From a bacterium (GTDB lineage Bacteria; Krumholzibacteriota; Krumholzibacteriia; LZORAL124-64-63), in the NCBI GenBank assembly GCA_016712675.1, contig JADJQR010000001.1, forward strand, positions 3,351,056 to 3,415,055: a DNA stretch of 64,000 nucleotides. Reading direction: 5' to 3'. The position numbers and the translations under genes are program-made. The notes below the pieces were generated by a model. The model made no database searches. It saw only the letters and a list, made by a program, of their open reading frames with translations, and was not told the origin of the DNA. Below are positions 7,978-61,569 of this stretch, in pieces. Numbering within the stretch: the stretch's first letter is position 1; each line of letters starts with the position of its first letter.

Positions 7978-8076
7978 CCACCGGGCGGTGGACAGGGGGC
8001 GAACCCCGGCTTTGGATTATAGCGCATCGGGGCGGCAAGGCCACGGAGAAATTGATCGCGTCTTGGGGATAATTGC

Positions 8077-8099
8077 TCACATGACAGCCATTTATGTGA
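8077..8099. promoter_or_regulatory. Palindromic candidate operator in a divergent intergenic region
   Basis: TCACAT-N11-ATGTGA perfect inverted repeat inside the locally AT-richer 325-bp region between the divergently transcribed beta-helix/C25 operon and the large C25 peptidase gene. Confidence 0.3.
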
Positions 8100-8302
8100 C
8101 CATTGCGCGGTATTTGCTGCGGAAATGGGATAATAAAGTGAGGCTACCGAACCTCATGATCTGGTATGATCTGCGCAGCGGAATCCGAGCCGCGCCCGAC
8201 CCTGGCGCGGCTCCAGTCTGCCGGCCCCGGGATGCCCCCTGGCGGCCGGCCAGCGAGCTTGCCGTGCGGCGGCCCACGCCGCCATCGCCCTTGGAGGCTT
8301 CC

Positions 8303-16866: not shown

Positions 16867-19401
16867 CTATTTCAGCATCACCATCTTGTGCTCGGCAACT
16901 TCGCCGTCGGCCTGCAGGCGTGCCAGGTAGACACCGCTGCCGACCCGGCGGCCGCTGCCGTCCAATCCGTCCCAGACGGCGCTATGGCCGCCGGCCTCGA
17001 GGTTGCCGGCCACCAGGCGCCGAACGAGGCGTCCCTGGGCGTCGTACACGTCCAACTGGACGGGGCCGGCCTTCGCCAGCGCGAACTCGACCTTCGTCAG
17101 CGGGTTGAACGGGTTCGGATGGTTGCCCAGCGCCAGTGCGCGTCCGGGCACGTCGCCGACGCCGGCCACGTAGGACGGCAGCGCCCACAGCTCGACGTCG
17201 TCGATGTTCCAGCCGGAGTAGGTCCAACTGCCGTCGGTGGTGCCCATGGTCCAACGGATCAGCACGTTCGGCTGGCCGTCGGCCAGCGCGCTGATGTCGT
17301 AGCTGACCTGCGTCCACGCCGCGTCCGTGATCTCGCTCGCGTTCGTCCAGATGGTGGTCCAGCTGCCGCCGCCGTTGGTGCTGATCCGCACGTAGGCGTG
17401 ATCATAGGACGGTTGCTCGACGTTGAGCCAGCGCCAGAACTTCAGCACGGTGCCCTGCATGGCCGAGCAGTCGATGGCCGTGGTGGTCAGGTGCGACTCG
17501 GCCATGTTGTTCGGGTAGTCGCCGGTCAGGTTGTAGCCCAGCACGTTGCCCCCGGTGTAGCCGCTGGTCGGATCGTTCTCGCCGTAGGAGCCGCCACCGC
17601 CGGACGGCACGCCGAACGCCCAGCCGGTGCCCAGCGTCCAGCCCGGGTTGGAATCCAGCGGGAAGCTGACCGTCGCCACCGGCACGCCCACCTTCAGGCT
17701 GAGCCCGCGGATCGTGCTGCCTTGGCCGTCGGTCGTGTTCGTGATGGTCAGTGAACCGGTGTGGATCCCGTTGCCCAGCGAATTGGCTGCCGCGTTCAGG
17801 GTCACCGTGACAGAGGTCTGGGCGCCGGCCGCAAGGGTGCCGCTGCCGTTGCCGACGGTCGCCCAGGCGACATCGGCGACGGCGGTGTAATTGATGGGAT
17901 AGGCGCTGTTGTTCGTGAGCGTGTAGGACGTCCCCGTGGGCGTGAACGGCCCGCCGGGATTGCCCTCGGACGCGAACGCGGCGCCGCCCACCGACAGGCC
18001 GCTGGCCCACGGCGCGTAGGTGTCCAGGGTCACGGTGCCGCTGGCGGTCGGGTCCAGGTAGCTGGCGATGGCCGACCACGAGGTCGACAGGCGCCCGTAC
18101 CAGTCCGACGAGTTGTTGCCGCAGGCCGCGTAGCCGCCGTGCAGCTGGCCCACGACGCGGTGGTTCAGGTCGAACAGCGGCGAGCCGGACGAGCCCGGCT
18201 CCGTGGTGCCCAGATCCCAGTCGATGACGCGGATGTGGTTGCCGCCAGCCACGACGGTGTTGCCCAGGTAGGCAGTCGTGGTGGTCGCGTCGTACTCGAA
18301 GCTGATGCTCTTCTCGTCCGTATCCGGGTGGTGGATCGCCACAACGCCCCCGAAGTCCTGCGTGGACTTGTTCCAGCCGGCGAAAGAGACCTCGTGGTCG
18401 GGGTTCACCGGGTCATCCATGCGCACCAGCGTGAAGTCCGAGGTGCTGCTGGCGGCCAGGAACACCGAGCCGGTCTGGAACTCCGCCAGGCTGCCGCCGC
18501 TCTGCTGTCCGCAGACGGGGCTCTGGAAGTTCCAGTAGACCACCAGCGAGGCAGCGTTGCTCGCGCCGATGCCGCAGTGGTTGGCCGTCAGGAAGTACGG
18601 CGTGCCGTCCTCGGCCGTGTTGTTCAGCATCGAGCCGGTGCAGAAGGTGCTGCCGCCGGTCGAGATCACGCCCACGGAGTTGATCTCCAGCCGCCAGTCG
18701 TCACCCTCGGGGCAGACGACGTCGATGTTGCAGGCGCCCGCCTTGCCGGCCGCCAGGTCCTGCTGCATACGCTCGATCTGCTCGCCGAAGAACGCGTAGC
18801 CGCGGTTGATCGAGCCGATCCGCAGCTCGTAGTCGTGGCGCGATTCCCTCGGCAGCACGAGCTCGACCATGATGTCCTCGGCGACCACGACCGGGGTCCA
18901 CAGCTCGCCGTGGTCCTCGTTGTCGGCGTCGGTGAAGACGCGGACGCCGCGGACGTCGTCGTGGGCCTTGGCATCGGTCGGGTACAGCGACAGGCGCGCG
19001 CCCTTGGGCAGGCGGTAGGCCGTGAAGCCCAGGTTCAGCGAGAGCGCCCCCGGCGAGGTGACGCGCAGGCGCCACATCGTGAACCGCTCGTCCAGGTCCT
19101 CCCAGGTACCGGCCGTCTCCGGCGACAGGTCCACCAGCTGGGGCACGGCGAAGCGCGGCGGCAGGCCCGCCTCGGCGCGGCCGCCGTCCTCGGCCAGCGC
19201 GGCGGCACGGTCGACCGGCATGGCCCCGAACGCTGCCACGGCCGTGACGGACGCGACGGGGTACTCCGCGGCGACCGGGCCCTGCACGGCCAGGGGGTTG
19301 AGGTAGGTGCGCGGGGCGTCGGCGGCGACGGCGGCCGTGGCCGCCAGCAGCAGCGCCAGCGCCACCAGGGTCAGCCGGTGGTGCGTTCGAAATGAGGTCA
19401 T
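16867..19401 (-). CDS. Secreted trypsin-like serine peptidase (lysyl-endopeptidase-like) with T9SS-type C-terminal domain
   Basis: Signal peptide; catalytic-triad-like motifs (LTANHCG ... GTTEPGSSGSPLFD); C-terminal NHPNPFNPLTKVEFAL...VYDAQGRLVRRL...GVYLARL...KMVMLK; GGAGGAA RBS upstream of the ATG at 19401. Confidence 0.75.
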   Translation of the reverse strand: MTSFRTHHRLTLVALALLLAATAAVAADAPRTYLNPLAVQGPVAAEYPVASVTAVAAFGAMPVDRAAALAEDGGRAEAGLPPRFAVPQLVDLSPETAGTWEDLDERFTMWRLRVTSPGALSLNLGFTAYRLPKGARLSLYPTDAKAHDDVRGVRVFTDADNEDHGELWTPVVVAEDIMVELVLPRESRHDYELRIGSINRGYAFFGEQIERMQQDLAAGKAGACNIDVVCPEGDDWRLEINSVGVISTGGSTFCTGSMLNNTAEDGTPYFLTANHCGIGASNAASLVVYWNFQSPVCGQQSGGSLAEFQTGSVFLAASSTSDFTLVRMDDPVNPDHEVSFAGWNKSTQDFGGVVAIHHPDTDEKSISFEYDATTTTAYLGNTVVAGGNHIRVIDWDLGTTEPGSSGSPLFDLNHRVVGQLHGGYAACGNNSSDWYGRLSTSWSAIASYLDPTASGTVTLDTYAPWASGLSVGGAAFASEGNPGGPFTPTGTSYTLTNNSAYPINYTAVADVAWATVGNGSGTLAAGAQTSVTVTLNAAANSLGNGIHTGSLTITNTTDGQGSTIRGLSLKVGVPVATVSFPLDSNPGWTLGTGWAFGVPSGGGGSYGENDPTSGYTGGNVLGYNLTGDYPNNMAESHLTTTAIDCSAMQGTVLKFWRWLNVEQPSYDHAYVRISTNGGGSWTTIWTNASEITDAAWTQVSYDISALADGQPNVLIRWTMGTTDGSWTYSGWNIDDVELWALPSYVAGVGDVPGRALALGNHPNPFNPLTKVEFALAKAGPVQLDVYDAQGRLVRRLVAGNLEAGGHSAVWDGLDGSGRRVGSGVYLARLQADGEVAEHKMVMLK

Positions 19402-33877: not shown

Positions 33878-34690
33878 ATGATCACATACCTACCCCGTCA
33901 CCTGGCTGCCGCCGGGTGCCTGGCGGCACTTCTGGCCGTTGCCTGTCGGATCGAAGCGCAGGGGGACCGCATGACCGGCATTGCCACGGTAACCGAGGCG
34001 CAGTGGCAGGCTGTTGCCGCCCGGCGCGTGATTTTCGCCCACCAATCTGTCGGGCGCAACATCCTCGAGGGGCTGCGGGCCCTGGACGGCGGCTCGCGCC
34101 TGGCGATCGCCGAGACGCGCTCGCCGACGACCGGGCCGGGCATCTTCCACTTCGCCGTCGGCCGCAACGGCGATCCCCTGGGCAAGGTGAGTGACTTCGC
34201 GAGCGCCATCGACACGGGTGCCGCTGGCGACATCGCGCTGCTCAAGCTCTGCTACGTCGATTTCTCGCACGGCGCCGACCCACTGGCGGTTGCGCAAGCC
34301 TACGGGGACACGCTCGACAATTTGGCGGCGCGGCACCCCGCGATGACGTTCGTCGCGGTCACCGTGCCACTGACCACGGTGCAGGGGGGAGCCAAGGCGT
34401 TCGTCAAGAAGCTGCTCGGTCGCGAGCCCACCGGCTTCACCGAGAACGCCCGGCGGCAGGTGTTCAACGACGCCTTGCGCAGCCGCAGCCACTCCGGCCG
34501 CCCGCTGTTCGACCTGGCCACCATCGAGGCTGGCGACTGCAGGAGCAGCTACGGCGGGCAGTCGATCCAGTATCTGGACCCGGATCTGACGAGCGACGGC
34601 GGCCATCTCAACGAACAGGGCGCGCGACGGGCTGCGGCAGCGCTCGTGGCGTTCCTGGCCGACCTGGACGCCGCGTCCGGGGCCCGTTAG
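33878..34690 (+). CDS. Secreted hydrolase-like protein, possibly SGNH-fold
   Basis: Signal peptide; C-terminal DGGHLNEQG resembles the SGNH block V D-x-x-H; the other blocks are weak. Confidence 0.4.
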   Translation: MITYLPRHLAAAGCLAALLAVACRIEAQGDRMTGIATVTEAQWQAVAARRVIFAHQSVGRNILEGLRALDGGSRLAIAETRSPTTGPGIFHFAVGRNGDPLGKVSDFASAIDTGAAGDIALLKLCYVDFSHGADPLAVAQAYGDTLDNLAARHPAMTFVAVTVPLTTVQGGAKAFVKKLLGREPTGFTENARRQVFNDALRSRSHSGRPLFDLATIEAGDCRSSYGGQSIQYLDPDLTSDGGHLNEQGARRAAAALVAFLADLDAASGAR

Positions 34691-34785: not shown

Positions 34786-37632
34786 CTACCGGTACCCGAA
34801 CACCACCGCCCAGATGATCAGCACCACGAGTCCCAGGCCGATCGTCAGCGCCACGAACCCGAAGGTCTTGAGCGCCTTGACGAAGCCCTCGGGCAGCGGC
34901 TCGACCATGTGCTCCTCGAGCCGGCCTTCGCGCACCAGCTGCTCGTATTCGCGCGGCCGATCTTCCTTGAACTCCTCCAGCGTCATGCGGCCGGTGAAGA
35001 TCACGGGGTCCATCGGGAACCGGTCCGGACGGAAGTGCGTGTTGAAGAAGTGGATCGTGAAGATGAAGCCGGTGGCCAGCAGCGCCTCGTCCGAGTGGAT
35101 GATCTGCGCCACGTTGATGAACCAGCCCGGCAGCACCCGGGTGAACAGCTCCGGGAACCACAGGATCAGGCCGCTGAAGCCGATCATGGCGACGCCCCAG
35201 AACACCGCGAAGTAGTCGAACTTCTCCCAGTAGGTCCAGCGGCCGTACTCCGGGCGCGCACCGCGGCCGAGGAACCACTTCAGCGTGCCGATGAACTCCT
35301 GGCCGTCGCGCTGGTTGGGGAACATCCCGTCGGGCCCGAACACGAATTCGCGCCAGCTCTTGCCCGACTGCTTGCGTCGGCAGTACAGGTCATAGATATG
35401 ACGCGTGAAGTAGAAGAAGGTCAGGATGGCGCCCATACGATGCAGGGTGCCGGCGGACTGGAAGCCTCCCAGTGCCCTGGCCAGCGTCTGGGCCCACGGC
35501 AGATACGAGAACTTCAGGGTCATGCCGGTGACCGCGAGCGTCAGGAAGCTGACGATGACCATGATGTGCAGCGTGCGGTTGAGGCGATTGAAGCGTCGGA
35601 ACTGCTTCTGCCCTGCGGCCTGCTTCCTCAGCTGCCGGCTGTGCCGCAGCGCCTGGAAGCTGCGCGGCAGCCACAGCAGCGTGTGAAGGCCGAAGACGCT
35701 GAAGGTGCCCACCAGAAGTGCGGTCATGAACAACCACGTGTAGTGGATGACCGGGTACTTCGTCTTGTCATGGTGCGTGGCATGAGTCAGATAGCCGGCG
35801 AACTGCCGGTGCGCGCCCTCGTGGCACTTCGCGCACGTGCCCACGATGTTGTCGCGCGAAAGCGTCGAGGCCGGGTTGTCCGGCTTCTGGATGCTGTGCT
35901 GGCCGTGGCAATCCGAACAACTGGCCGTCTCCGTGTAGCCCAGCGCGAAGACCTTGCCGTGGTAGGTCTCGAAGTAGCTCTCGGTAACGTGTTCATGGCA
36001 CGTGCCGCACTGCGCCACGATCCGCAGCCGGAAGCCCTCGGCGTCCGTGCGCGCGATCTGGTGCGAGGTGTGGCAGTCGTTGCACATGGGCAACCGGTGC
36101 CCATCCTTCGCCTCGCCCGTGAAGTGGATGCTCTGCCGGAACTCGCGGTCGACGCCCTCGTGGCACTTCCCGCAGGTCACGTCGACCTTCGAGCGGTGCA
36201 CCGACGAGGCAGGGTCGGCGCTCGGCATGATCGCGTGCGTGGTGTGGCAGTCGACGCAGGTGGCGGTCACGACCAGGCCGCTCTTGTCCAGGGCCCGCCC
36301 GTGCGTGCTCTCCTTGTAGTTGGCCACCATGCTCTTCTCGGTGCCCTCGTAGCGCTTGTCGGCCACGCCGCCCTCGTCGTGGCACTTCCCGCACATGTCC
36401 GGGATGTTGCGCACGTGGGTCATCGACGCGGGATTCGTCCTCTTCAGGATGTCGTGCCGGCCGTGGCAGACCAGACAGTCCGGGACATCCTTGTCGCCCT
36501 GGGCGCCCAGCTTGCCGTGGATGCTGGCTTTGTAGGTCTCGACGACTTCGGCGTGGCAGATCGAGCAGTCGACCCTGTTGGGCACCGTGTCGCACGGGCG
36601 TGCGTGGCTGGGGGTGGCTCCCGTGTGGCACTGGATGCAGGCGGTCTTGACGTGCGCCGAGCCGGCCAGCATGGCGTGGTCGACGTGCATCGACCGGCCG
36701 GCGTTGGCCGGCGTCGCGCCGACGAGGTCCTTCTGGGCGTGGCACTTCAGGCACTCGCTGTCGGCCATCCCCTCGCCGTAGTACACGCGGCGGATCTCAT
36801 GCGGCTCGTGGCATTCAATGCAGGCCGGGACCTTGCTCGGTTCCTTCTCCCAGAGTTGGCCCTCGATGACCTTCGCGTGCACTTTCTCGATCATCCCGTG
36901 ACACGACTGGCACATGCCGGCGATGTTGTCGCGATGGATGCTGCTCTTGGGGTCCTTGTGGTTGCGCACGTTGTGCGCTGTGTGGCAGTCCGAGCACACG
37001 GCCGAGTTCGTCAGGCCCCGCTTGTAGAGGCCCTCGCCGTGAATCGAGAAGGAGTAGTGCGCCAGGATGCTATCCTGCGACACCTCGGCGTATTCGCGGA
37101 TGGCCTCGCCTTCCCGGTGGCAGCGCCCGCACATCACCGGGATGTTGAAGCGGTTGACCTTCGACGCGGGATCGTTCGGCGGCATGATGTCGTGCGCGCC
37201 GTGGCAGGTCCAGCAGCGCGGGGCGATGGGCACGCCCTGGCTGACTCCCACCCCGTGCAGGCTACCGGCATACTGCGCGGCCACACCGTCATGGCACGTG
37301 CCGCAGTCCACGTCCGGCAGTTCCTCCGCGTGCGGCCAGTCCTCCACGCCCGCCAGCGACTGGTGGCAGTCCACGCAGCCGATGCCCTCACGCCCGTGCA
37401 CCGAGCGGTTGTAGACCCCGAGGTCGAAGTAGAGCGACTTGACCTGACCGCGCTCGTTCTTGGTGAGGCTACGGTCGTCGTGGCACATCTGGCAGGTGTC
37501 CGCGTCCTGGGCCAGGGCGTCGGCTGCGGTCAGGGCCAGGCCCAACGACGCCATCGCTGTCGCCAGCCACAGCAGGCCGCCGCGCCGTCGGCGGTCCTGG
37601 TGGCGTGGTCCACGCGGGAAGCTCATCGGCAC
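34786..37632 (-). CDS. Multiheme c-type cytochrome (19 CxxCH) fused to a C-terminal membrane cytochrome-b-like domain (CbcL-like)
   Basis: 19 CxxCH motifs counted in the first ~600 aa (CQMCH, CVDCH, CGTCH, CWTCH, CGRCH, ... CAKCH), then about six TM helices bearing conserved His (LHTLLWL, LHIMVIV, LHRMGAIL, IHFFNTHF). Confidence 0.8.
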   Translation of the reverse strand: MPMSFPRGPRHQDRRRRGGLLWLATAMASLGLALTAADALAQDADTCQMCHDDRSLTKNERGQVKSLYFDLGVYNRSVHGREGIGCVDCHQSLAGVEDWPHAEELPDVDCGTCHDGVAAQYAGSLHGVGVSQGVPIAPRCWTCHGAHDIMPPNDPASKVNRFNIPVMCGRCHREGEAIREYAEVSQDSILAHYSFSIHGEGLYKRGLTNSAVCSDCHTAHNVRNHKDPKSSIHRDNIAGMCQSCHGMIEKVHAKVIEGQLWEKEPSKVPACIECHEPHEIRRVYYGEGMADSECLKCHAQKDLVGATPANAGRSMHVDHAMLAGSAHVKTACIQCHTGATPSHARPCDTVPNRVDCSICHAEVVETYKASIHGKLGAQGDKDVPDCLVCHGRHDILKRTNPASMTHVRNIPDMCGKCHDEGGVADKRYEGTEKSMVANYKESTHGRALDKSGLVVTATCVDCHTTHAIMPSADPASSVHRSKVDVTCGKCHEGVDREFRQSIHFTGEAKDGHRLPMCNDCHTSHQIARTDAEGFRLRIVAQCGTCHEHVTESYFETYHGKVFALGYTETASCSDCHGQHSIQKPDNPASTLSRDNIVGTCAKCHEGAHRQFAGYLTHATHHDKTKYPVIHYTWLFMTALLVGTFSVFGLHTLLWLPRSFQALRHSRQLRKQAAGQKQFRRFNRLNRTLHIMVIVSFLTLAVTGMTLKFSYLPWAQTLARALGGFQSAGTLHRMGAILTFFYFTRHIYDLYCRRKQSGKSWREFVFGPDGMFPNQRDGQEFIGTLKWFLGRGARPEYGRWTYWEKFDYFAVFWGVAMIGFSGLILWFPELFTRVLPGWFINVAQIIHSDEALLATGFIFTIHFFNTHFRPDRFPMDPVIFTGRMTLEEFKEDRPREYEQLVREGRLEEHMVEPLPEGFVKALKTFGFVALTIGLGLVVLIIWAVVFGYR

Positions 37633-37885
37633 ACTCTCCGTCCAAGTACGTCGGCTCGGCTCAATGGGGCCAATGATCTACAGTTACAGGTGGAGATCAA
37701 GCGCTAATCGGAAAATTGAAAACGAGTTACGTGATCGTTTGAAGCCCGCAGACCTCCATCATCAAGAGCATCTTGCTCTCGCTTTATCGTAAGCGGCCAA
37801 CGGTCAATAAGTTTCGCAATCGTATTGGGTCGCGCGCCGCCGGGGAGGGCCTCGATAGGGGCCGAAGCAGGCCGGGGCAGCCTGT

Positions 37886-38710
37886 TCAGCGCGTCCGAAC
37901 GTCCCTGCGTCGCGCCCTCGCGGCGGGGCCGCTCGCTCCCGCCTTCGGCGCAAAGGCCCCGATCTCCTGCGCGGTCAACGGGCGCAGGCCCCCGGGCGCC
38001 AGATCGCCGAGAGTCACGCCACCGAGCCGCACCCGCCTGACCATCAGCACCTTGTGGCGCAGCGTCGCCAGCATCCGCCGCATCTGGCGCGCCTGGCCGC
38101 CGCGCAGGGTCAGACTCAGCATCGTGCGGCCTCGCTCGCGCGAAAGCACCTTCACCGAAACGGGCCGGAACGTGCCCAGACCCGGCACGACGATCCCCGC
38201 ATCGATCACTGTCAACTGGACATCGCTGACCTCGCCCTCGACCTGCACGGTGAACTCGTGCTCGCAGTCGACGACACTGGTGACGCGCGTGATCCAGGCA
38301 CCGTCGTTGGCCACCAGAAGCAGGCCGGAAGTGCGCGAGTCCAGCCGACCGGCGGTGCGCAGCCCGATCACGTCATCGGGAAGGAAGTCCTCCACCAGAC
38401 GCCGGCCGGGCCCGTCCTCCTGCCGACAGACCACGCGCAGGGGCTTGTGGAACGCGTAGTACGCGGGTTCTACCTTGGCCAGCGGCTTGTTGTCGAGGAA
38501 CACGACGGTATCCGTGGCGATCATGCGCAGCGGATCGGTCACGACGTCATCGCCCACGCGCACGCGACCTGCCTTGACGGCGGCGTCCGCCCAGCGCCTG
38601 GTGCCGTAGCCCGCCTTCATCAACGCGCGCGACAGCCCCATGGGCCGACCCGGCAGCCAGGGCTGCTGGGCCTCTCCTCTCTTGAGGGCCCTGTCAGGGG
38701 ACTTGGACAT
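37886..38710 (-). CDS. Pseudouridine synthase, RsuA/RluB family
   Basis: S4-like N-terminus and catalytic GRLD motif (LRTAGRLDSRTSGLLLVANDG). Confidence 0.8.
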   Translation of the reverse strand: MSKSPDRALKRGEAQQPWLPGRPMGLSRALMKAGYGTRRWADAAVKAGRVRVGDDVVTDPLRMIATDTVVFLDNKPLAKVEPAYYAFHKPLRVVCRQEDGPGRRLVEDFLPDDVIGLRTAGRLDSRTSGLLLVANDGAWITRVTSVVDCEHEFTVQVEGEVSDVQLTVIDAGIVVPGLGTFRPVSVKVLSRERGRTMLSLTLRGGQARQMRRMLATLRHKVLMVRRVRLGGVTLGDLAPGGLRPLTAQEIGAFAPKAGASGPAARARRRDVRTR

Positions 38711-39889: not shown

Positions 39890-41611
39890 TCAGCGCACGA
39901 CCGTCAGTTTCCGGGCGTGCTCCCGGCCCGCCGAGGTCACCACGGCCAGGTACGTGCCCGCCGGGGCGGGTCGGCCGTCTTCGGCGCGTCCATCCCAATG
40001 GAAGCGGTGGCGGCCGGGTCCGAGGTGCCCCCCGAAGATCCGCCGGAAGCGGCGGCCCCGCGCATCATAGACGTCCACCTCCACGGCGGCGCCTGCCGTC
40101 ATCGCGCAATCGAACCAGGTGCCGCCGTTGCACGGATTCGGCTCGATCGAAACCAGCCTGCCACGCGGAGGCAGGGGCGGACCGGGAATCGTGTCCACAT
40201 CGATCGTCCACGCGCGGGCTTCTCCGGCGCGTGCGGGGTTGCCGACGACGATCCCGACCGAAGCCAGTCGACCGGCCGGAGTGCGCAGCACGACCTGCGC
40301 GTCGTTCTCGCGGTCCAGCCCGACCGATTCGAGCGACGCGCCACCATCCACGTCACGCACATGGAGCGCCAGCGACAGGGGCCCGTCGTCCTCGTGCCCG
40401 TCGAACGTCAGCCGCAGCAGGCACTCGCCCAGGTCCTCGAAACCACCCAGTTCCACCGGTGTCGCGGCAAGATGCGCCACGGTCCCCGTGATCCGCGCCG
40501 GGTAGCTCTCGGCCCGCGCGAAAACGTCACCCGTCGGATAGTCGGCCGCGTCGGCATAGCCCATCCCCACCACGGCGCGCTTGCCGACCACGTAGTTCCA
40601 GCCGGTGAAGCCCGCCCAGGCTGCGGCCAGCGAGGCACCGCGCGGCGCCAGCACCCCATCCCACGCGGCCAGGGGATCCTCGTCCGGCATGGTAGCGCGG
40701 CGTTCCCAGTAGTCGCGTATGACCGCATCGCCCCAGCGCGCGTTCAGCCAGATCGCGAACACGGCGTCATCGTACGAGCCCGTGCCACCCGGCCCGCTGT
40801 CCAGCGGCAACTGCGGCCGGCGGACCGGGCTGTCGCCCAGCAGGTAGTGGTGGTAGGCATTGACCAGGGGAAAGGTGCGCTCCTCGGCCCAGGTGGCGTC
40901 GAGTTCCGTCCAATTGCCCTCGCTCCAGCGGCTGCCGGCGTACTGGCTGCAGTGTCTGAACTCGTGGGCCGCCGTGACCTTCGCCGAACCGATGGCGTTG
41001 CCCTCGGGATCGTCGTTCGGCGGGAAACGACTGTAGGAGTTGTGAAGCACGATACGGGAGGTTCCGGCGCCGGGGTCGACCGGCACCGTATAGCCGTAGT
41101 AGTGCATGCGGCGGAACGAGACATCGATGGGGCCGCCCGGCGGGGCGCGGAAGCCGAACTCCCCGATCGCGAGGTCCCAGGACTCCTCGAGGTACCTGGC
41201 GATGTGGGCGACGAAGTCGGGCACGCCATCCTGCGGGTCGTCGTCGGCGCTGGGCACCGCGTTGTCGCCCGTTGCGAACCAGCCCAGGCGGAAGTGGCCG
41301 CCCGGGCTGAGCAGGGTGTTCTCATCGCTGACATACGCAAGGAAGTCGTCGATCGTGCTGACGGTCCCTGGTGAGAGACCCGGACGCTGCTCGAGATACT
41401 CGCGCACCTGAGACGTGCCGCAGCCGGCGTCGTCCATCGGCCCGCCCTCGCCGGCGCCACCGTCGAACGCGGCGCGGAAGCGGTCGAGCAGCCCCTGTCC
41501 GGCATCGAGGGGCACGGCGGCACCCGCCGCCGGCGGGGCCGCCAGGACGGACGGCAACAACGCCGCCAGCAGTGCGGCAGCCAAACTCGCCCTGACTTCG
41601 AGCGGGCACAT
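39890..41611 (-). CDS. Secreted HExxH zinc metallopeptidase-like protein with T9SS-type C-terminal domain
   Basis: Signal peptide; HExxH motif (AAHEFRHC); C-terminal IEPNPCNGG...VDVYDARGRRFRRIF...GTYLAVV...KLTVVR. Confidence 0.6.
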   Translation of the reverse strand: MCPLEVRASLAAALLAALLPSVLAAPPAAGAAVPLDAGQGLLDRFRAAFDGGAGEGGPMDDAGCGTSQVREYLEQRPGLSPGTVSTIDDFLAYVSDENTLLSPGGHFRLGWFATGDNAVPSADDDPQDGVPDFVAHIARYLEESWDLAIGEFGFRAPPGGPIDVSFRRMHYYGYTVPVDPGAGTSRIVLHNSYSRFPPNDDPEGNAIGSAKVTAAHEFRHCSQYAGSRWSEGNWTELDATWAEERTFPLVNAYHHYLLGDSPVRRPQLPLDSGPGGTGSYDDAVFAIWLNARWGDAVIRDYWERRATMPDEDPLAAWDGVLAPRGASLAAAWAGFTGWNYVVGKRAVVGMGYADAADYPTGDVFARAESYPARITGTVAHLAATPVELGGFEDLGECLLRLTFDGHEDDGPLSLALHVRDVDGGASLESVGLDRENDAQVVLRTPAGRLASVGIVVGNPARAGEARAWTIDVDTIPGPPLPPRGRLVSIEPNPCNGGTWFDCAMTAGAAVEVDVYDARGRRFRRIFGGHLGPGRHRFHWDGRAEDGRPAPAGTYLAVVTSAGREHARKLTVVR

Positions 41612-53865: not shown

Positions 53866-54735
53866 TCACCGCAGCATCGACATCTTCCTCGTCTCCACGC
53901 CCCACGGCGTCGTCAGCCGGCAGAAGTAGGTGCCCGACGGCATCGGCACGCCGAAGGCGTCCTGACCGTCCCAGTCGGCGGTGTGCGCACCCGCAGGCAG
54001 CGGCTGGTCGACCAGGCGGGCCACGAGCCGGCCCTTGGCATCGTGGATGGTCACCAAGGCATGGCCGGCGGCCGGCAGCGTGAAGCTCACTGTCGTCCGC
54101 GGGTTGAAGGGGTTTGGGTAGTTCTGGCGCAGCGCGGCGCCGCCCGCGACGGGGACGCCGGGCGCATCCACCGTCCCCGCCGGGACCGGGATGTTGAACG
54201 TGAAGTTGTCGATGCCCTGCAGGACCTCCCTCATTCGGATCATCGCCACGACAGGTTCCGGGAAGCTGAAGGTCACCAGATTTCCGGAGCCTTCGTTCCA
54301 CGCCTCAGCCAGGAGTTCGCCGTGGATGTCGAACGCCTGCATCAGTATTCCCTCTCCCGGTCCCCAACAGTTGTCCTGGGCGGTTCCCACGAAGTCGGTC
54401 ACCGCCGGAGCCCCCGTGAGCGGATCCACGAACCAGGCGAGGACGGCGGGATCTCCGCCGACGTGGTTCGGAGAAGACAGGGAACACATGTGCGGGACGG
54501 CGTACACGGCCCGCGACGAGTCCCCCATGGTGAACACCACGCCGAGGCTGCTCCACTGATCGTGCACGGTGTAACCCTCCGGGACGGGTGAGCCGTCCGG
54601 ATAGGTGTCGAAGTCGACAATCTCCCGTGTCGCCACCTCGCCGAAACCGGACACCGGTGCCTCATCCCGAGCGACGACCTGCACCGCCACACCCGTGCTC
54701 GCCAACGTCACCGTCGCGAAGACCAACCACCACAT
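53866..54735 (-). CDS. Secreted protein of unknown function with T9SS-type C-terminal domain
   Basis: Start set at the ATG at 54735 (GAAGGAGG RBS just upstream; signal peptide MWWLVFATVTLAS); C-terminal NYPNPFNPRTTVSFTLP...IHDAKGRLVARL...GTYFCRL...KMSMLR. Confidence 0.6.
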   Translation of the reverse strand: MWWLVFATVTLASTGVAVQVVARDEAPVSGFGEVATREIVDFDTYPDGSPVPEGYTVHDQWSSLGVVFTMGDSSRAVYAVPHMCSLSSPNHVGGDPAVLAWFVDPLTGAPAVTDFVGTAQDNCWGPGEGILMQAFDIHGELLAEAWNEGSGNLVTFSFPEPVVAMIRMREVLQGIDNFTFNIPVPAGTVDAPGVPVAGGAALRQNYPNPFNPRTTVSFTLPAAGHALVTIHDAKGRLVARLVDQPLPAGAHTADWDGQDAFGVPMPSGTYFCRLTTPWGVETRKMSMLR

Positions 54736-54949
54736 GACGGCCTCCTTCGTACCAGTAGCGCCCATGCGCGCTTCATCGAGCGCACTCCCGATTCGATGAT
54801 ACCATGTCGAATGGTGGTTTTCCGGACGATCCACGATTCGTCTGCTTCAGGTTCCTGCGCGACGGATCTCTGGGGTTGTGCCGTCGAGATCGTGCCCGGC
54901 CCGGGGACGGGTCGTTGAGCCTACAGTCCTGTTCTCCCTGATTCCCGCG

Positions 54950-55065: not shown

Positions 55066-57447
55066 ATGAAGCGCGCCGCCCGCCTACTCCTGCCCTGCTT
55101 CCTCGTCACCTGCTGGGCGACCAATGCCGCTGGTGCCACGATCCACGTGATGGAGTTCCGCCAGCTCGTCTACCAGGTCGAAGAAGGAACCGGTCCGGGT
55201 GAACCCGATGATGTCGGGTCGCTGCTCGTGGCCTACGGCAAGGACCTTGACGTGGGGTACCTGAATCTCGCCGCGGTCATTCCCGGCCTGACCCCCGACC
55301 CGGTCTGGCTCGTGGCCAACATGCCGCTGTACTCACAGCAGATGGGTCCGCCGCTGGCCGAGACCGCCGTGCGGCTGCCGTTGTCATGGCTTGGCATCGA
55401 GTATGGCATGACGGCCATGAACATCCAGTTCGGCTGGGAGGTCCTGGCTTCGCCGCTAACCGAGACCGCTGGCGAACTGTGGGCGCAGACCGTGCCCCTG
55501 CTCTACGACCAGCCCGTCTTGCGGCAGGTTGTCGACGCCAAGGGATCGAAGCCCGACCTGTCCGAACGTGAGTACATCTGGCCCGATCCCTCCGGCCTCT
55601 GGCGTGAACCCTTTTCGCCTGCCGAGCCGTTCCTCGTGACCTACAGCACCATCGGCTGCAATATGCCCAACATCCCGCTCAACGAGGCCACCAATCCCAT
55701 GGACGGCGCCGGCTGCGTCGCCGCCTCGACCACCAACAGCATGATGTGGCTGGACGGAAAGCACGACGAAATCACGTTCCCCGGCGACCAGCGCCAGATC
55801 TTCGCGCAGTTCAGCCACCTGATGAACCGCAAGCCCGGGGATGGCGTAACGACCGAGGAGCAGGCCCGAGCCAAGCTCGACTTCATTGAAGCCCACGGCC
55901 TGCCCATCAAGGTGAAAATCCAGAACAAGTTCTCCAACGGGAATGTCAAGAGCAGCAGCGGCCGCTCCAGCGCCGAGGACACCGACGGCGGACCCGAGGG
56001 CACCTGGCCCGGCCTCGCCTGGATCCAGAGCGAGACGCAGGACGAGGAAGACGTCGAGATCAACTACGGCTACTGGTACAAGGACGCCTCCGGCAAGTGG
56101 CGACGCAACGGAGGCCATTCGGTGGTGCTGACCGGGGCGGGCACGGTGCTCGGCGCTCCCTACATCGACATCAAGCACGATGCCAAACAAGGCGACGACA
56201 GCGGCGTCGTGGAGGAGCGTTACTGGCTGACCAGCGCCCCGAACGGTGCCGTCGAGATCTCCGGCGAAGGCGGCCGGTGGAAGCACGCCGACGGCGTCAC
56301 GTACGAACACCACGCGTTCATTGACGGCGTGGTCAGCGAAAGTCTGGACACGGGCGCGACGCCGCCACCATCCAGCGAGACCTTCGGCGGCTACTGCCAG
56401 GAATTCGTACGGGTGATCCCGCCCGGCAAGACCCTGGAGATCGATTTCCCCTCGTCGACGTGGTGGTGCCGCAACGTCACGGTCTACACGCGCGACCGCT
56501 CCGATGATCCGGCCAAGGACGTCAAGTTCACCGAATGGAACGACAACGGAGGCAAGACCCGCAAGATAGCCAACGCCGACACCATCAGGACCCTGACCGT
56601 TGTCGTCCACTGCGACGACCGCCAGCCCTATCGGCTCGGCTACTCGCCGTGGAGCGTGGGTCTAAGGATGGTCGCCAACTCCGGCAAGGAGACCACGCCC
56701 GGCAATCCGGAGGACTATGGCGGCTTCTCGATGGGCTGGTCAGACAGCTCGAGCGCCGAGTTCCGATTCATCACGGCGCCCAGCGTGATGGTCGCCGCCG
56801 ACATCGGCGCCGACCTGAGCCAGATGCCGGGCTGGCTGGGCATGACGACCGGCTGCCAGGAGCTGTGGCTTACCCGCCAGATCCCGGTCTGGAACCACCA
56901 CTGGCAGGAACTCGGCTTCATCGTGGACGTGGTCGAGGTCGCCCAACCCGGCGATCTCTTCGTTGATTGCCCACAGACCGCGACGGCCGTGATGATCCCC
57001 ATCGCCGCTCCCGGTCGCTACGAGATCCACCTGGGCCTGATGGCGCCGGCGCCGGACTTCCAGATCCGCCTGGCGCCGAGCCACGGACTGGAGATGGCTC
57101 TGGACTGCGTGGGCGTGCCGAGCATGGTCGACGACGCTGCCGGCGTGGACGAGAACTCCGACCTGCCCGAGCGCCCGGTGATCCGCGCCGTCTATCCCAA
57201 TCCGTTCAACCCGGCGGTGACGATCCGCTTCGCCCTGCCGCGACCGCTCGACGTCGAACTGCTCGTCTACGATCTGCAGGGTCGCCGTGTGGCGACGGTC
57301 TTCAAGGGCCGCCTGGCCGAAGGCAGCCAGACACTGGACTGGCGCGGCCGCACGGACGACGGGCAGGACGTCGCCGCGGGCACCTACCTGGTGCGTCTGC
57401 GGGCTGGAGGTGAGACGGTCACGTCCAAGGCCACTCTGGTCAAGTGA
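55066..57447 (+). CDS. Secreted protein of unknown function (793 aa) with T9SS-type C-terminal domain
   Basis: Signal peptide (MKRAARLLLPCFLVTCWATNAAGA); C-terminal VYPNPFNPAVTIRFALP...VYDLQGRRVATV...GTYLVRL...KATLVK; sigma-70-like promoter upstream. Confidence 0.65.
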   Translation: MKRAARLLLPCFLVTCWATNAAGATIHVMEFRQLVYQVEEGTGPGEPDDVGSLLVAYGKDLDVGYLNLAAVIPGLTPDPVWLVANMPLYSQQMGPPLAETAVRLPLSWLGIEYGMTAMNIQFGWEVLASPLTETAGELWAQTVPLLYDQPVLRQVVDAKGSKPDLSEREYIWPDPSGLWREPFSPAEPFLVTYSTIGCNMPNIPLNEATNPMDGAGCVAASTTNSMMWLDGKHDEITFPGDQRQIFAQFSHLMNRKPGDGVTTEEQARAKLDFIEAHGLPIKVKIQNKFSNGNVKSSSGRSSAEDTDGGPEGTWPGLAWIQSETQDEEDVEINYGYWYKDASGKWRRNGGHSVVLTGAGTVLGAPYIDIKHDAKQGDDSGVVEERYWLTSAPNGAVEISGEGGRWKHADGVTYEHHAFIDGVVSESLDTGATPPPSSETFGGYCQEFVRVIPPGKTLEIDFPSSTWWCRNVTVYTRDRSDDPAKDVKFTEWNDNGGKTRKIANADTIRTLTVVVHCDDRQPYRLGYSPWSVGLRMVANSGKETTPGNPEDYGGFSMGWSDSSSAEFRFITAPSVMVAADIGADLSQMPGWLGMTTGCQELWLTRQIPVWNHHWQELGFIVDVVEVAQPGDLFVDCPQTATAVMIPIAAPGRYEIHLGLMAPAPDFQIRLAPSHGLEMALDCVGVPSMVDDAAGVDENSDLPERPVIRAVYPNPFNPAVTIRFALPRPLDVELLVYDLQGRRVATVFKGRLAEGSQTLDWRGRTDDGQDVAAGTYLVRLRAGGETVTSKATLVK

Positions 57448-57721: not shown

Positions 57722-60700
57722 CTATCTCAGCAAGCTCAGCTTCCTGGTGAAATCGGTCCCGCCAATGTTCACGCGTACAATGTACACGCCGCTGGCTGCC
57801 ACATCACCGTTCCGACCCAAGCCATCCCATACCTCACGGTAGTGTCCCGCCACGCGCTGGCCCGACCACAGTTCCCGCACAAGACGGCCCCGAACGTCGT
57901 AGAGCCTGACCGAAACGCGTGCCGTCGCCGGCACCCGGTATTCCACACCGATGCGCGGGTTCGCGGGATTGGGAACAACGACGACGGATTGCCCGAGCGT
58001 TTGCACGTCGATCGCGCGGCCGTCGTTGTCCGGGTCATCACCTTCACCCAGTGGCACTCCGGACACCTCCAAGATCTCCAGCTGTACCGACGCCTCGTTG
58101 TTTTCCCAACTCAGCTCCGATGCGCCATCGTCCGGAATGACCATCAAGCGATAGGACCGTGGGCCAGGATGCAACGGCAGGTCCTCACAGGTGACGTCGC
58201 AGGTCGAATTGGCGGCGATGGAGACGCTCCGGCGCAGCAACTCCGACCCGGACCCTTCGGCGACAATCAGGATCTCGGCCAGGCGAGCCGAAGTTCCGGC
58301 GTTGCGGACCGTTGCCTCGACACGCACCGGAGATCCGATGCGATTTCCCTCCGAGGTCGCCACCAGGGATCCCGCATCGATCAGCAAGTCGGTTGCGACC
58401 GCTTGGATCAACCCCAAGGTCGCGCGTCGTTCAAAGGGCGTCGGTGCATCGCCGCGACCGACGACGGAAAGCTCATAGTTGCCCGGTTCCGAGAGGGGCA
58501 CGAAGGCCGCGCTGTAGACGCCGTCGCCGGCCGTATCGCCTTCGGTCAACCCATCATCCAGGAGGGGAAACGAAGCGATGGAAACGCCGTCGAGCGTCAG
58601 CTCGGCGGCCACTGTCGCACCGAGTACCGCCGAGTGCGCGCCGTGTTCGATCGCAGCGCGGACGACGCGCTCATTCCCCGTGCCATCGACATCGGGCTCG
58701 AGCATGGCGTTCATCGCGACGGCATTGACGCCGTCGACAAGGTAGACGATGCCGTAGTCGACAGTCGCGTGATCGTCACGGGCGCACACCTGCCATGCTC
58801 CCGCTTCGGGAGCGGCGACCAGATAGGACATGAGACCGGATTCGGGGTCCGTTTCGCAGGTGATCAGCGGGTCGACATCAGCGACAGCCTCGTCGACAAC
58901 CTGACCAGTGGGCGTCCTCAGAAAGGCCGACGTCGATCCCGATCTGAAGAGATAGGAGAATCGCAACGTGTCGGCTGCTGCACTGGAAATCGTGGCCACG
59001 GCTTCCACGCCTGGCGTCAGTGAAAGCACGCCTGCGTCCAGAGAGCGCCATGAAGCCACGTCGACGCTCGCGGCCGGATCGATGGCCGCCGTCGCCATCG
59101 CACGATCGTCGTCCGTCAGAAGCGCCTTGACGACATCCCACACGTTCGGGTCTTCGACAACACCGAGACTGGCGCTTCGCTTGTGATGGACGTTCGGGAT
59201 GATGAGGTTCTCCACATTGGGCGCCGTGCTCGACAACTGGGCCGAGACGAGAGGAACTGCTCCGTCGTTCTCGAGGCAGTTCCACGGCGGTGCCGCAAGA
59301 AGAGTCGCCGTCAACAGGTACGGCCCAAGCCATGATTGACCAGGATCACCGGCAATCGCGAAATACCGCGTGCTTCCGTTGAGTCTGACTTCTGGTGGCG
59401 GTGCGGGCCAACCGCATAGGCCGCTCCAGTCAGGCGCCCAGGGCGATGCAGTTCCTCGATTGAGTTCGCGCATGAACGGACTGCTCGGCATCAGGTCGAT
59501 CAGCGCCGGATGCGACGTCAACAATTCCACCAGGTCGCGACCAATCGCGATTGGCGCTCCCGGTTGCGGATTCAGTGCCGCCTGCAGGAGCGCATAGACG
59601 CCGGCCAGTGAAAGGACGAGAGGGCTGCCATGGTGCGGCGTCGCCAACGTGACGAGCTTCCGCACGGAAACCGGCGCGATGGCGAACATCTCATTGTAGT
59701 AGCGACTCGTCAGGCCCCCTTGGCTGTGGGCGACGATATCCACTGTCCTGACGTCGAGATGCTCCAGGTAGGTACGAAGCTGCCGCGCTTGCTGTCGGAT
59801 GCCGTCCAACCCGCACAGATCGTCGAGGCAATGGCCCAGTTGCAGATCGTGTGCTACGGCGAAGCCGTTCGCCGACAGGTAGCCCGCCAGTCCGGGGTCG
59901 CCGCAATCCCAGATCGACGGCCCGCTGGCAATGCCGTGGACCAGAACGACGACGCACGAATCCAGGGACAGAGTCGGTGCCTCGATCGAGACGTCGTCAG
60001 CCAAGACGGTGAAAGATGTCGTGCTGCCCGGCCGGTAGATGGCCTCACCGGTCAAGGGGCCCGTGAGCGCGAACTTGGTGGCCGAGACGTAGTAGTCTCC
60101 CGGTTCAACGACCGATAGCTGGACGAGGCCATCGTCGTTGGTGACGTCGGAGGTGACCTGTTCGCCGGTGGCGGCCCTGATGAGCGATACATCGGCGCCG
60201 GCAATCGGCAGACCGGCATAGGCATCGTCGATCCGGACAGTCACCACCCTTGTTGCAGCGACCTCGATCGACACTTCCTGCGAAGCGGATCCGTCCACGA
60301 AGACGGCCTCGCGCGTCGATTCATGCCCGTTGTGGCTGGCCCATACCGTGTACCAACCGGTAGCCCACGGATGGAACCCCGGCCCACCTCTCTCATTCGT
60401 CGCGAAGGTGCGCTGTGTGCCGTCCTGGCTCATGACGTGGACCGTCGCGCCTTGGAGCGCCTGGCCGGTTTCCATGGCGCTCACGGTTACCTTCACATAG
60501 GGTGCGAGCAATTGCCGTATTTCCGCAGCGGTCAGCGCGCGGTCATAGATGCGCACGTCATCGATCGTGGCGCGAACGTGTTCGTTGAGGGCAGGCGTGA
60601 CCGAGTCGTTCTCGCGACAGCCGACGCGGAAGTTGTAGGTGGGTTCCACGATGCCGGTCACGGCGACGGAATTGAGCAAGTCACCATCGATGTAGATGTG

Positions 60701-61270
60701 GGCGACGGCACCGTCGTACGTCAGGCTGAGCATGTGCCAGGCGCCGTCATCGCTCCGCAGGTTGACTACCATGTCGCGGGCCATGACCTGTATGCTCAAT
60801 CGCGCCGGGGCACTGACGCCGGAATCACTGCCGAAGATCCTGAAAAGGCCGGCGGTGGCCGGTTGGTAGACCGCGATGAAATTGCCCCCTCGCCATTGCG
60901 ATGTCGCTCCCCACCCGGATCCAGGCGCGTCGCTCTTGACCCAGAGGTTGTAGGATAGGTTTGGATAGCTTCGGGCGGAACCGAAATTGAGATTGATATT
61001 GTCATTGATCCCATCGAAGTAGTAGGCATGGCCCACGATTCCGTCGCGTCCGGTGGCAGGTGTGGCTCCCGTCACGGTGCCACTTGGCTGCTGGCCGCTG
61101 GCGTCGGCCGCGGATCCATCAAACGGGTAATACCCCAGGAGGCCGTCGGTCAGACCCGCACGGGCCATGGGGACCGACCATGCGCATGCAAGTACTACAA
61201 ATGCGACGAAGGATAAAATTGTGAACGGAATCGGGAACGCAAGAACGCGCGACTTGGGTTGCGTGTGCAT
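57722..61270 (-). CDS. Secreted multidomain protein: LamG/concanavalin-like domain, alpha/beta-hydrolase (lipase/esterase-like) domain, T9SS-type C-terminal domain
   Basis: Start set at the ATG at 61270 (AGGAGG upstream); LamG-like N-region (LLGYYPFDGSA...LTYDGAVAHIYIDGDL); nucleophile elbow (DIVAHSQGG); C-terminal VPNPANPRIGVEYRVP...LYDVRGRLVREL...GVYIVRV...KLSLLR. Confidence 0.6.
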   Translation of the reverse strand: MHTQPKSRVLAFPIPFTILSFVAFVVLACAWSVPMARAGLTDGLLGYYPFDGSAADASGQQPSGTVTGATPATGRDGIVGHAYYFDGINDNINLNFGSARSYPNLSYNLWVKSDAPGSGWGATSQWRGGNFIAVYQPATAGLFRIFGSDSGVSAPARLSIQVMARDMVVNLRSDDGAWHMLSLTYDGAVAHIYIDGDLLNSVAVTGIVEPTYNFRVGCRENDSVTPALNEHVRATIDDVRIYDRALTAAEIRQLLAPYVKVTVSAMETGQALQGATVHVMSQDGTQRTFATNERGGPGFHPWATGWYTVWASHNGHESTREAVFVDGSASQEVSIEVAATRVVTVRIDDAYAGLPIAGADVSLIRAATGEQVTSDVTNDDGLVQLSVVEPGDYYVSATKFALTGPLTGEAIYRPGSTTSFTVLADDVSIEAPTLSLDSCVVVLVHGIASGPSIWDCGDPGLAGYLSANGFAVAHDLQLGHCLDDLCGLDGIRQQARQLRTYLEHLDVRTVDIVAHSQGGLTSRYYNEMFAIAPVSVRKLVTLATPHHGSPLVLSLAGVYALLQAALNPQPGAPIAIGRDLVELLTSHPALIDLMPSSPFMRELNRGTASPWAPDWSGLCGWPAPPPEVRLNGSTRYFAIAGDPGQSWLGPYLLTATLLAAPPWNCLENDGAVPLVSAQLSSTAPNVENLIIPNVHHKRSASLGVVEDPNVWDVVKALLTDDDRAMATAAIDPAASVDVASWRSLDAGVLSLTPGVEAVATISSAAADTLRFSYLFRSGSTSAFLRTPTGQVVDEAVADVDPLITCETDPESGLMSYLVAAPEAGAWQVCARDDHATVDYGIVYLVDGVNAVAMNAMLEPDVDGTGNERVVRAAIEHGAHSAVLGATVAAELTLDGVSIASFPLLDDGLTEGDTAGDGVYSAAFVPLSEPGNYELSVVGRGDAPTPFERRATLGLIQAVATDLLIDAGSLVATSEGNRIGSPVRVEATVRNAGTSARLAEILIVAEGSGSELLRRSVSIAANSTCDVTCEDLPLHPGPRSYRLMVIPDDGASELSWENNEASVQLEILEVSGVPLGEGDDPDNDGRAIDVQTLGQSVVVVPNPANPRIGVEYRVPATARVSVRLYDVRGRLVRELWSGQRVAGHYREVWDGLGRNGDVAASGVYIVRVNIGGTDFTRKLSLLR

Positions 61271-61569
61271 GATGCCTCCTGGGAAGTCACGGTGCATTCG
61301 AGATCCGGAGGCAAGGGAATATGAGCACGTTCTCCGCCAGCGGACCGCCGTGGTGCGTTCCCACTATGGTGAGCGATGAAGGTTAGACCAATGGAATGGA
61401 ACGGAATTCACCGGAATGCGGAGATTCGAACCCCCGCGATGCGCTCGTCTTCCGCCAGCGTGTATCCCGAAGCCGCCCCCGCCGTATATACTCCTTTCCA
61501 CCGTCCCGCCGGGCGGGGCCCCACGGCCATCGTCCCGACGCGTGCCACCCCGAGCCCGGAGCGTCAGCC

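Follow-up and report, generated by a model that had tools for sequence, protein, structure and literature searches.

The 64,000-nucleotide stretch of contig JADJQR010000001.1 analyzed here (the window) encodes on its minus strand, at 34786..37632, a single 948-residue polypeptide in which a predicted periplasmic domain with 19 CxxCH heme-binding motifs is fused to a six-helix membrane domain. By sequence comparison, the protein belongs to the published CbcL/MtrH/MtoC family and, within that family, to the 19-heme subclass. It is probably a single-polypeptide inner-membrane cytochrome that oxidizes menaquinol and delivers the electrons toward periplasmic or outer-membrane acceptors. A sequence-only reading of the window had already proposed one 948-aa protein with 19 CxxCH motifs and a CbcL-like quinol-oxidizing module. 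The polypeptide was recovered at exactly these coordinates, and the functional interpretation is supported by the family membership, the FdnI-type heme ligands and the CbcL-type membrane domain described below. The gene and the elements of its product, including the transmembrane (TM) helices that flank the membrane core, are as follows.

34786..37632, minus strand: complete open reading frame (ORF), 948 aa from GTG, with a TAG stop codon at 34786-34788
37510..37632, minus strand: Sec-type signal peptide (residues 1-41) with an Arg-rich n-region, a hydrophobic core (residues 19-38) and an ALA/QD cleavage motif
35752..37509, minus strand: periplasmic multiheme c domain (residues 42-627) with 19 CxxCH motifs, ~31 residues per heme
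36784..37440, minus strand: octaheme repeat copy 1 (residues 65-283), heme spacings 24,30,28,45,28,30,23
36046..36696, minus strand: octaheme repeat copy 2 (residues 313-529), heme spacings 24,30,28,45,28,30,25
35677..35751, minus strand: TM0 (residues 628-652), an extra helix running from the periplasm to the cytoplasm, with the invariant H650 at its cytoplasmic end
34927..35610, minus strand: FdnI/HydC-like four-helix diheme cytochrome b core (residues 675-902)
34798..34863, minus strand: TM5 (residues 924-945), an extra C-terminal helix that is also present in CbcL

The heme domain contains exactly 19 CxxCH motifs, which are spread over residues 47-600 and are all invariant or nearly so in an alignment of 62 homologs, in agreement with the 19 sites claimed earlier. 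At least 18 additional His residues outside the motifs are invariant between residues 42 and 627, and no Met residue is invariant there. At the sequence level, this pattern is consistent with bis-His ligation of all c-hemes, which has been measured for the c-hemes of CbcL. The spacings between successive motifs are, in order, 39,24,30,28,45,28,30,23,38,24,30,28,45,28,30,25,30 and 28. The spacing pattern raised the suspicion of an internal repeat, which was then confirmed by alignment of the two octaheme copies (35% identity across 220 residues, E 2e-45). Because residues 65-283 align to residues 313-529, the heme array is read as 1+8+8+2, with an internal duplication of an octaheme module. Relatives with 11 hemes adopt a 1+8+2 arrangement and match the 19-heme protein only from approximately residue 290 onward. 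The N-terminal export signal is also apparent in the AlphaFold2 (AF2) model, where a helix at residues 18-38 coincides with the hydrophobic core of the signal peptide. The A41 and Q42 residues at the cleavage motif are nearly invariant in the aligned homologs, and the AxA rule would place the cleavage site there.

The membrane domain is composed of six hydrophobic helices (residues 628-652, 684-706, 728-750, 804-826, 841-866 and 924-945), as defined by hydropathy and the AF2 model. Lys and Arg residues are concentrated in the cytoplasmic loops (9, 10 and 10) relative to the periplasmic loops (2 and 1), and this positive-inside distribution places the heme domain in the periplasm. Topology prediction, suggested in the sequence-only reading as a check on its estimate of about six TM helices with conserved His residues, gave a signal peptide at residues 1-41 and six helices, and seven His residues of the membrane domain are invariant in the 62 homologs. 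The further proposal that the C-terminal part be aligned to cytochrome b families led to E. coli FdnI and to a full set of b-type ligands. A profile of the C-terminal 344 residues yielded FdnI as its single sequence match in the PDB (1KQF_C, E 1.7e-4). The profile alignment spans all of FdnI and superimposes its heme-ligand His residues 18, 57, 155 and 169 on the invariant H689, H731, H846 and H861 residues. Because all four ligands coincide with invariant His residues, the core is assigned as an FdnI/HydC-type diheme cytochrome b that is preceded by TM0 and followed by TM5. The predicted core forms a four-helix bundle with ligands on helices 1, 2 and 4, and the two ligands on helix 4 are separated by 15 residues, compared with 14 in FdnI.

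The window protein shares the four-helix fold and the four heme ligands with FdnI (1KQF/1KQG chain C) but is only ~17-19% identical to it in structural alignments. It differs from FdnI in having TM0 and TM5, in carrying two extra His residues on the cytoplasmic side and in being partnered by a fused cytochrome c instead of an Fe-S subunit. FdnI has no counterpart of either extra residue: H650 (window positions 35683-35685) marks the cytoplasmic end of TM0, and H745 (35398-35400) is located on TM2, 14 residues below H731. With the pair of ligands that hold the inner b heme, they raise to four the number of conserved His residues at this membrane depth. H650 and H745 may form a quinone or proton site or bind a third heme. 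Six membrane His residues (H650, H689, H731, H745, H846 and H861) are retained in all members of the 19-heme clade (70/70) and in 14-16 of 16 shorter paralogs.

In addition to H745, the core contains H866 and the signature motif RWTYWEKFDYFAVFWG (residues 798-813). Two invariant segments, RWTYWEKFDY and HFFNTHFRPD, sit close to the inner-heme ligands where TM3 and TM4 reach the cytoplasmic side. The FdnI residues Q113 and K114 align with E803 and K804, so that polar residues occupy the quinone-site positions of FdnI. The region of the two segments aligns with that forming the cytoplasmic-side quinone site of FdnI. Relative to the paralogs, the 19-heme clade is set apart by the W802, N864-T865, H866 and R868 residues and by a HATHH motif that precedes TM0.

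One of the closest known systems is CbcL of G. sulfurreducens (GSU0274). Both have a signal peptide, a periplasmic multiheme c domain with all-bis-His ligation, a HydC/FdnI-type diheme b core and six TM helices with equivalent spacing, and the tabulated TM helices of GSU0274 (285-307 through 589-611) superpose on those of the window protein after a constant offset of ~343 residues. The RRF.R...H, PN.RD...WFL.RG..P...RW.YWEKFD.FAVFWG and FGPD motifs are common to the two proteins. They differ in heme number and length, with 9 hemes in 619 aa for CbcL and 19 hemes in 948 aa here, in line with the earlier claim of a CbcL-like architecture with roughly twice as many hemes. The extra hemes are accounted for by an added leading part and the duplicated octaheme module. 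The window protein lies outside CbcL in the strict sense, a nine-heme protein of ~615 aa (9 hemes and 609-625 aa in the Geobacter clade). The settings also differ, since CbcL is hosted by Desulfuromonadia and the present gene by a Krumholzibacteriia-like organism in which cytochrome partners are not found nearby. Three machine-read CbcL fragments (Antunes et al. 2022 supplement, PMC9129911), noisy text that covers ~130 residues, scored 64, 139 and 42 against the window protein and 28-46 against the paralogs with 10-13 hemes. The fragments share RW.YWEKFD.FAVFWG with the query, and RWTYWEKFDYFAVFWG recurs in them. By these comparisons, the membrane domain matches the CbcL type, not that of the neighboring paralogs.

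MtoC/MtrH and the fusions with 9-15 hemes have the same overall architecture, and the paralogs carry one octaheme module. The MtoC/MtrH-type paralogs retain the six membrane His residues together with R732, Y801, E803, K804 and E849. The 9-15-heme paralogs are only ~30% identical to the window protein and lack W802, N864-T865-H866, R868 and the HATHH motif. The CbcBA system of Geobacter combines a heptaheme CbcA subunit, which has a C-terminal TM anchor, with the cytochrome b CbcB (PMC13591261). Its organization matches naturally split variants of the 19-heme protein, in which a c-subunit ending in TM0 is accompanied by a separate ~290-aa cytochrome b. The likeness to CbcBA noted here is one of organization, and the two systems differ in that the parts are fused in the window protein and the heme numbers are not the same. 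An ImcH or NapC-NirT type does not fit, as the TM helices are C-terminal here and not N-terminal, and the NrfH model gives 24 versus 134 bits. Sulfate reducers possess the 16-heme HmcA with HmcBCDEF, as well as Tmc, Nhc and Qrc, which are multi-subunit complexes with a NarI/NrfD-type membrane part. Like the window protein, they connect a sizeable multiheme cytochrome in the periplasm with a cytochrome b or quinone module in the membrane, but no sequence or fold match to the window protein was seen among the Hmc/Tmc/Nhc/Qrc-type complexes.

The family assignment follows from homology to listed members, an equal TM layout and near-identical heme spacing. The protein has the export signal, multi-CxxCH periplasmic domain, six C-terminal TM helices and HydC/FdnI-like core that characterize the family. 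CbcL/MtrH/MtoC homologs have been reported in 15 phyla, mostly with six TM helices, and range from 3 to 23 heme motifs and from 416 to 1034 aa (Zhong & Shi 2018, PMC6295460). Many entries in Table S2 of that survey have 19 hemes, 6 TM helices and a length of 907-952 aa, and their heme spacing nearly matches that of the window protein. Three such entries (OGU58019.1; MAF27600.1 from Gemmatimonadetes; BAX79136.1 from Marinifilaceae SPP2) fall in the same length class and have the same motifs and six TM helices; they differ from the window protein only in lineage. OGU58019.1 (Ignavibacteria bacterium GWF2_33_9) is the ORF of one of our related loci, L069, with the same length and with the same heme positions once an indexing shift of one is allowed for. 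Over residues 40-944, it shares 49.6% identity with the window protein.

Relatives of the protein number in the thousands. The best 120 are full-length, 55-89% identical and derived from Krumholzibacteriia, Zixibacteria and unclassified metagenome-assembled genomes (MAGs). A scan of one genome per species found a relative with the membrane motif in at least 592 species genomes; since the scan motif WTYWEKF seems to be present in true CbcL, this number counts CbcL-type membrane domains, and the 18-23-heme form is verified in the best 80 of these genomes only. The best 80 genome matches are 47-91% identical over the whole length and include Krumholzibacteriia, Zixibacteria, Ignavibacteria, many Acidobacteriota, Eisenbacteria, Gemmatimonadota, Planctomycetota, Woeseiaceae, Myxococcota, KSB1 and others. 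The best genome match is from Krumholzibacteriia (locus L004, 91% identity). Among ~83 orthologs of many phyla, 70 contain 19 CxxCH motifs, seven contain 21 and one contains 23. The 21-heme proteins are those of L013, L019, L026, L054, L062, L066 and L079, and the 23-heme protein is that of L082. These larger orthologs indicate, by motif count, that the heme chain has grown by additional modules in some Zixibacteria and Acidobacteriota lineages. The architecture, the family and the 19-heme form are already in the literature, as table entries only. Literature searches for 19-heme proteins gave nothing relevant, and neither searches for multiheme proteins of Krumholzibacteriota nor a paper on an iron-fed bioreactor yielded a description of this protein. 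The present analysis adds the octaheme duplication, the broad taxonomic spread of the membrane motif, the adjacency of ImcH homologs, the natural splitting of the gene in a few lineages and the two extra conserved His residues; the constancy of the 19 hemes is a further point of note.

The genomic neighborhoods of 83 related loci were compared. A paralog with 9-15 hemes and a cytochrome b domain lies within 10 kb at 40 loci, and another multiheme cytochrome does so at 37; no neighbor is universally conserved among the 83. The most frequent neighbor beyond the paralog is an ImcH-like gene, as identified by ImcH heme spacing (14/83). At 12 of those 14 loci (12/83), the ImcH homolog (~500 aa) is the immediate, co-directional neighbor, and 19-160 nt separate it from the 19-heme gene (L014, L015, L020, L025, L027, L033, L052, L079, L081 and others). 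In Zixibacteria RBG-1, this gene lies 22 nt upstream and encodes EQB63199.1, an ImcH homolog already published. The two genes may be co-transcribed in these lineages.

The 19-heme gene is naturally split in four relatives (L039:9974-12901, L041:9851-12844, L050:225-2891 and L061:9764-12796). In each, a TAA or TAG codon occurs in an expanded cytoplasmic TM0-TM1 linker and is followed at once by a Met start. The predicted products are a 19-heme subunit, for which TM0 serves as the C-terminal anchor helix, and a separate ~290-aa cytochrome b. The reading frame is maintained downstream, consistent with gene fission by nonsense mutation. Recoding of the stop codons, for example as selenocysteine, was ruled out by their identity (TAA/TAG), the low-complexity linker and the immediate Met start. 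A different gene was observed at L003, in a Zixibacteria MAG, where the divergent neighbor (7212-9749, minus strand) encodes a multiheme protein of 845 aa. The b domain of this protein scores above the curated FdnI-gamma cut-off (136 vs 115.85 bits), and a weak resemblance to a 'methanogenesis multiheme cytochrome' model was noted for the heme part. As a c/b fusion, it is of another kind than the window protein.

The analysis directly shows the architecture, fold, ligand conservation, family membership and internal duplication; from these we infer where the quinone binds, which way electrons flow, and what the partners and the final acceptor are. Sec-dependent export and heme attachment would generate a chain of 19 bis-His c-hemes in the periplasm. 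TM0 would then return the polypeptide across the membrane to the four-helix cytochrome b and the sixth helix. The two b hemes would be stacked across the membrane, with H731 and H846 ligating the heme on the periplasmic side and H689 and H861 the heme on the cytoplasmic side. As in FdnI, the most likely place for the quinone site would be the cytoplasmic side, close to the inner b heme, where it would be formed by the RWTYWEKFDY and HFFNTHFRPD segments. By homology with CbcL, electrons would pass from menaquinol through the two b hemes and the 19-heme chain to periplasmic or outer-membrane acceptors. With the quinol site on the cytoplasmic side, outward flow would be helped by the membrane potential, protons would be released inside and no energy would be conserved. 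Such a potential-assisted outlet with a poor energy yield would suit low-potential acceptors. CbcL itself is needed, as genetics has shown, for acceptors from about -0.10 to -0.21 V and passes electrons to periplasmic triheme cytochromes; its c domain has an Eapp of -194 mV and reduces PpcA.

The same protein could in principle work in the opposite direction, as a quinone reductase fed by periplasmic or extracellular donors such as Fe(II), reduced humics, a partner cell, or a periplasmic hydrogenase or formate dehydrogenase acting via small cytochromes. Electrons would then move inward via the b hemes to a quinone at the cytoplasmic face and generate proton-motive force. FdnI and HyaC, the closest solved relatives, both work by inward electron flow. 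MtoC-type homologs occur in the mtoAB clusters of Fe(II) oxidizers, where MtoC has been proposed for this role, and among the hosts of the present family are numerous soil and sediment lineages with an aerobic or facultative lifestyle, such as Bryobacterales, Gemmatimonadota and Woeseiaceae. The 2018 survey found the family in both Fe(III) reducers and Fe(II) oxidizers and held it to catalyze both reactions (PMC6295460). Nonetheless, the sequence is specifically nearer to CbcL than to the 10-13-heme paralogs that lie beside it in other genomes, the adjacency to ImcH is recurrent and operon-like with ImcH known only from Fe(III) reducers, and all-bis-His ligation implies low-potential hemes, as in CbcL. 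Quinol oxidation is favored because of the ImcH adjacency and the specific similarity to CbcL, and inward flow is regarded as unlikely, though it is the strongest competitor. Several observations weigh against the quinol-oxidizing assignment. The direction of flow is not told by sequence, according to the same survey. The direct comparison with CbcL relies on the noisy fragments and a published table, and the AF2 model is heme-free, with a predicted local distance difference test score of 76 overall and only moderate values in the c domain. Neither a paralog nor another cytochrome is nearby at 33 of the 83 related loci. Within the 64-kb window, no multiheme cytochrome partner, porin-cytochrome conduit, ImcH or respiratory enzyme was found, and the proposed electron-transfer capacity is, as had been remarked from the sequence, unexplained by the rest of the window. 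Finally, the membrane domain scores below the curated cut-offs of both the PF01292 (Ni_hydr_CYTB; 20.5 vs 30.1 bits) and TIGR01583 (formate dehydrogenase gamma; 40.3 vs 115.85 bits) models.

These weak PF01292 and TIGR01583 matches, together with the FdnI-like fold, could instead be taken to indicate the membrane anchor of a periplasmic formate dehydrogenase, hydrogenase or thiosulfate reductase, and automated annotation has indeed named homologs 'cytochrome b subunit of formate dehydrogenase' and 'thiosulfate reductase cytochrome b subunit'. Such an anchor role is very improbable and was largely refuted. The scores fall far below the cut-offs, genes for molybdopterin, Fe-S or hydrogenase subunits are absent from the window and not recurrent in the 83 loci, and the fused 19-heme domain fills the periplasmic face where FdnH would dock. 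The probability that the frame arose by chance, is a pseudogene or reflects an assembly error is negligible. Many spurious long ORFs are expected in DNA with a guanine-cytosine (GC) content of 70%, and nothing else speaks in favor of this explanation. It is refuted by a GC content at third codon positions of 0.92, which is typical of real genes in the window, by the thousands of homologs with an invariant heme count and by full-length conservation at 47-91% identity across phyla.

The translation start and the upstream region were analyzed in relation to the close relative L004. The GTG codon at 37632 opens the 948-aa frame, and an alternative ATG codon at 37626, two codons downstream, would give 946 aa. 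The ATG is likely the true start rather than the GTG because GGAG is located 9 nt upstream and the codon is conserved in L004. The region upstream of the gene contains the following elements.

37633..37885, minus strand: upstream intergenic region, 253 bp, with a GC content of 55.7% (window, 69.7%)
37674-37699, minus strand: inverted repeat TGATCT-N14-AGATCA, common to L004
37717-37732, minus strand: 16-nt block ACGTAACTCGTTTTCA, common to L004 and unique in the window

The 253-bp upstream region is AT-richer than the window, as the sequence-only reading had stated, and is a probable promoter and regulatory region. In L004 the two elements are maintained against a background of differing flanking bases and spacer, and in L005 each is retained in part. 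The inverted repeat and ACGTAACTCGTTTTCA may be a regulator binding site or a structure in the 5'-untranslated region. A scan for sigma-70 promoters and terminators gave nothing meaningful, and no sigma-70 consensus was found upstream; the lineage probably uses other promoter motifs.

The gene is flanked downstream by a convergent GDSL-like gene (33878-34690, plus strand) and upstream by a co-directional pseudouridine synthase gene (37886-38710, minus strand). The earlier description of convergent and divergent neighbors is therefore correct for the downstream gene and wrong for the upstream one. Nearby housekeeping genes encode asparagine synthase, NAD synthase, an AMP-binding enzyme, a cyclase, DUF503 and the pseudouridine synthase, and synteny with housekeeping genes is partly retained in distant relatives. 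A six-frame search of the other ~61 kb of the window detected only three isolated CxxCH motifs and no other gene with multiheme character, and no PpcA-like gene was found in the window. Rfam and tRNA scans of the window were empty. Elsewhere, the window encodes secreted peptidases with C-terminal domains of the type IX secretion system (T9SS) type, capsule genes, aconitase and others. A FlgD_ig/Por_Secre_tail C-terminal domain, a T9SS-type sorting signal, ends at least seven large window proteins, which are encoded at the following positions.

2498-6238, minus strand: T9SS-tail protein
7718-13423, plus strand: T9SS-tail protein
16867-19401, minus strand: T9SS-tail protein
39890-41611, minus strand: T9SS-tail protein
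53866-54834, minus strand: T9SS-tail protein
55066-57447, plus strand: T9SS-tail protein
57722-61297, minus strand: T9SS-tail protein

This set includes two gingipain-like C25 peptidases (1246 and 1901 aa) and a trypsin-like protease, and it points to a strongly proteolytic, secretion-rich organism of the Fibrobacteres-Chlorobi-Bacteroidetes (FCB) type. A gene pair at 845-2481 (minus strand) encodes CapC and a Mur-ligase-like protein of the CapB type, which suggests poly-gamma-glutamate capsule synthesis.

For this window alone, the result is an improved annotation and not a discovery, as the family is already catalogued and the acceptor is not revealed by the neighboring genes. A bolder and speculative reading, which we consider unlikely, has two parts: the heme chain would be long enough to span much of the periplasm and could pass electrons straight to outer-membrane or extracellular partners with no soluble carriers in between, and H650 and H745 would bind a third cofactor or form a specialized quinone and proton gate. 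If this were true, the H650/H745 site would make outward electron transfer membrane-potential-driven and reversible. The protein would then provide a self-contained, previously unrecognized route of extracellular or periplasmic respiration in Acidobacteriota, Gemmatimonadota, Zixibacteria, Krumholzibacteriota, Eisenbacteria and Ignavibacteria, major uncultured phyla of soils and sediments that are not counted as electroactive. CbcL-type proteins are the point at which electrons from the quinone pool enter the periplasm in the best-studied metal-reducing bacteria. Marker-gene surveys at present do not credit the lineages described here with an ability to exchange electrons. Because at least several hundred species from little-studied phyla have relatives of this protein, many heterotrophs of sediments and soils may be able to exchange electrons with periplasmic or external acceptors such as iron minerals, humic substances or partner cells.

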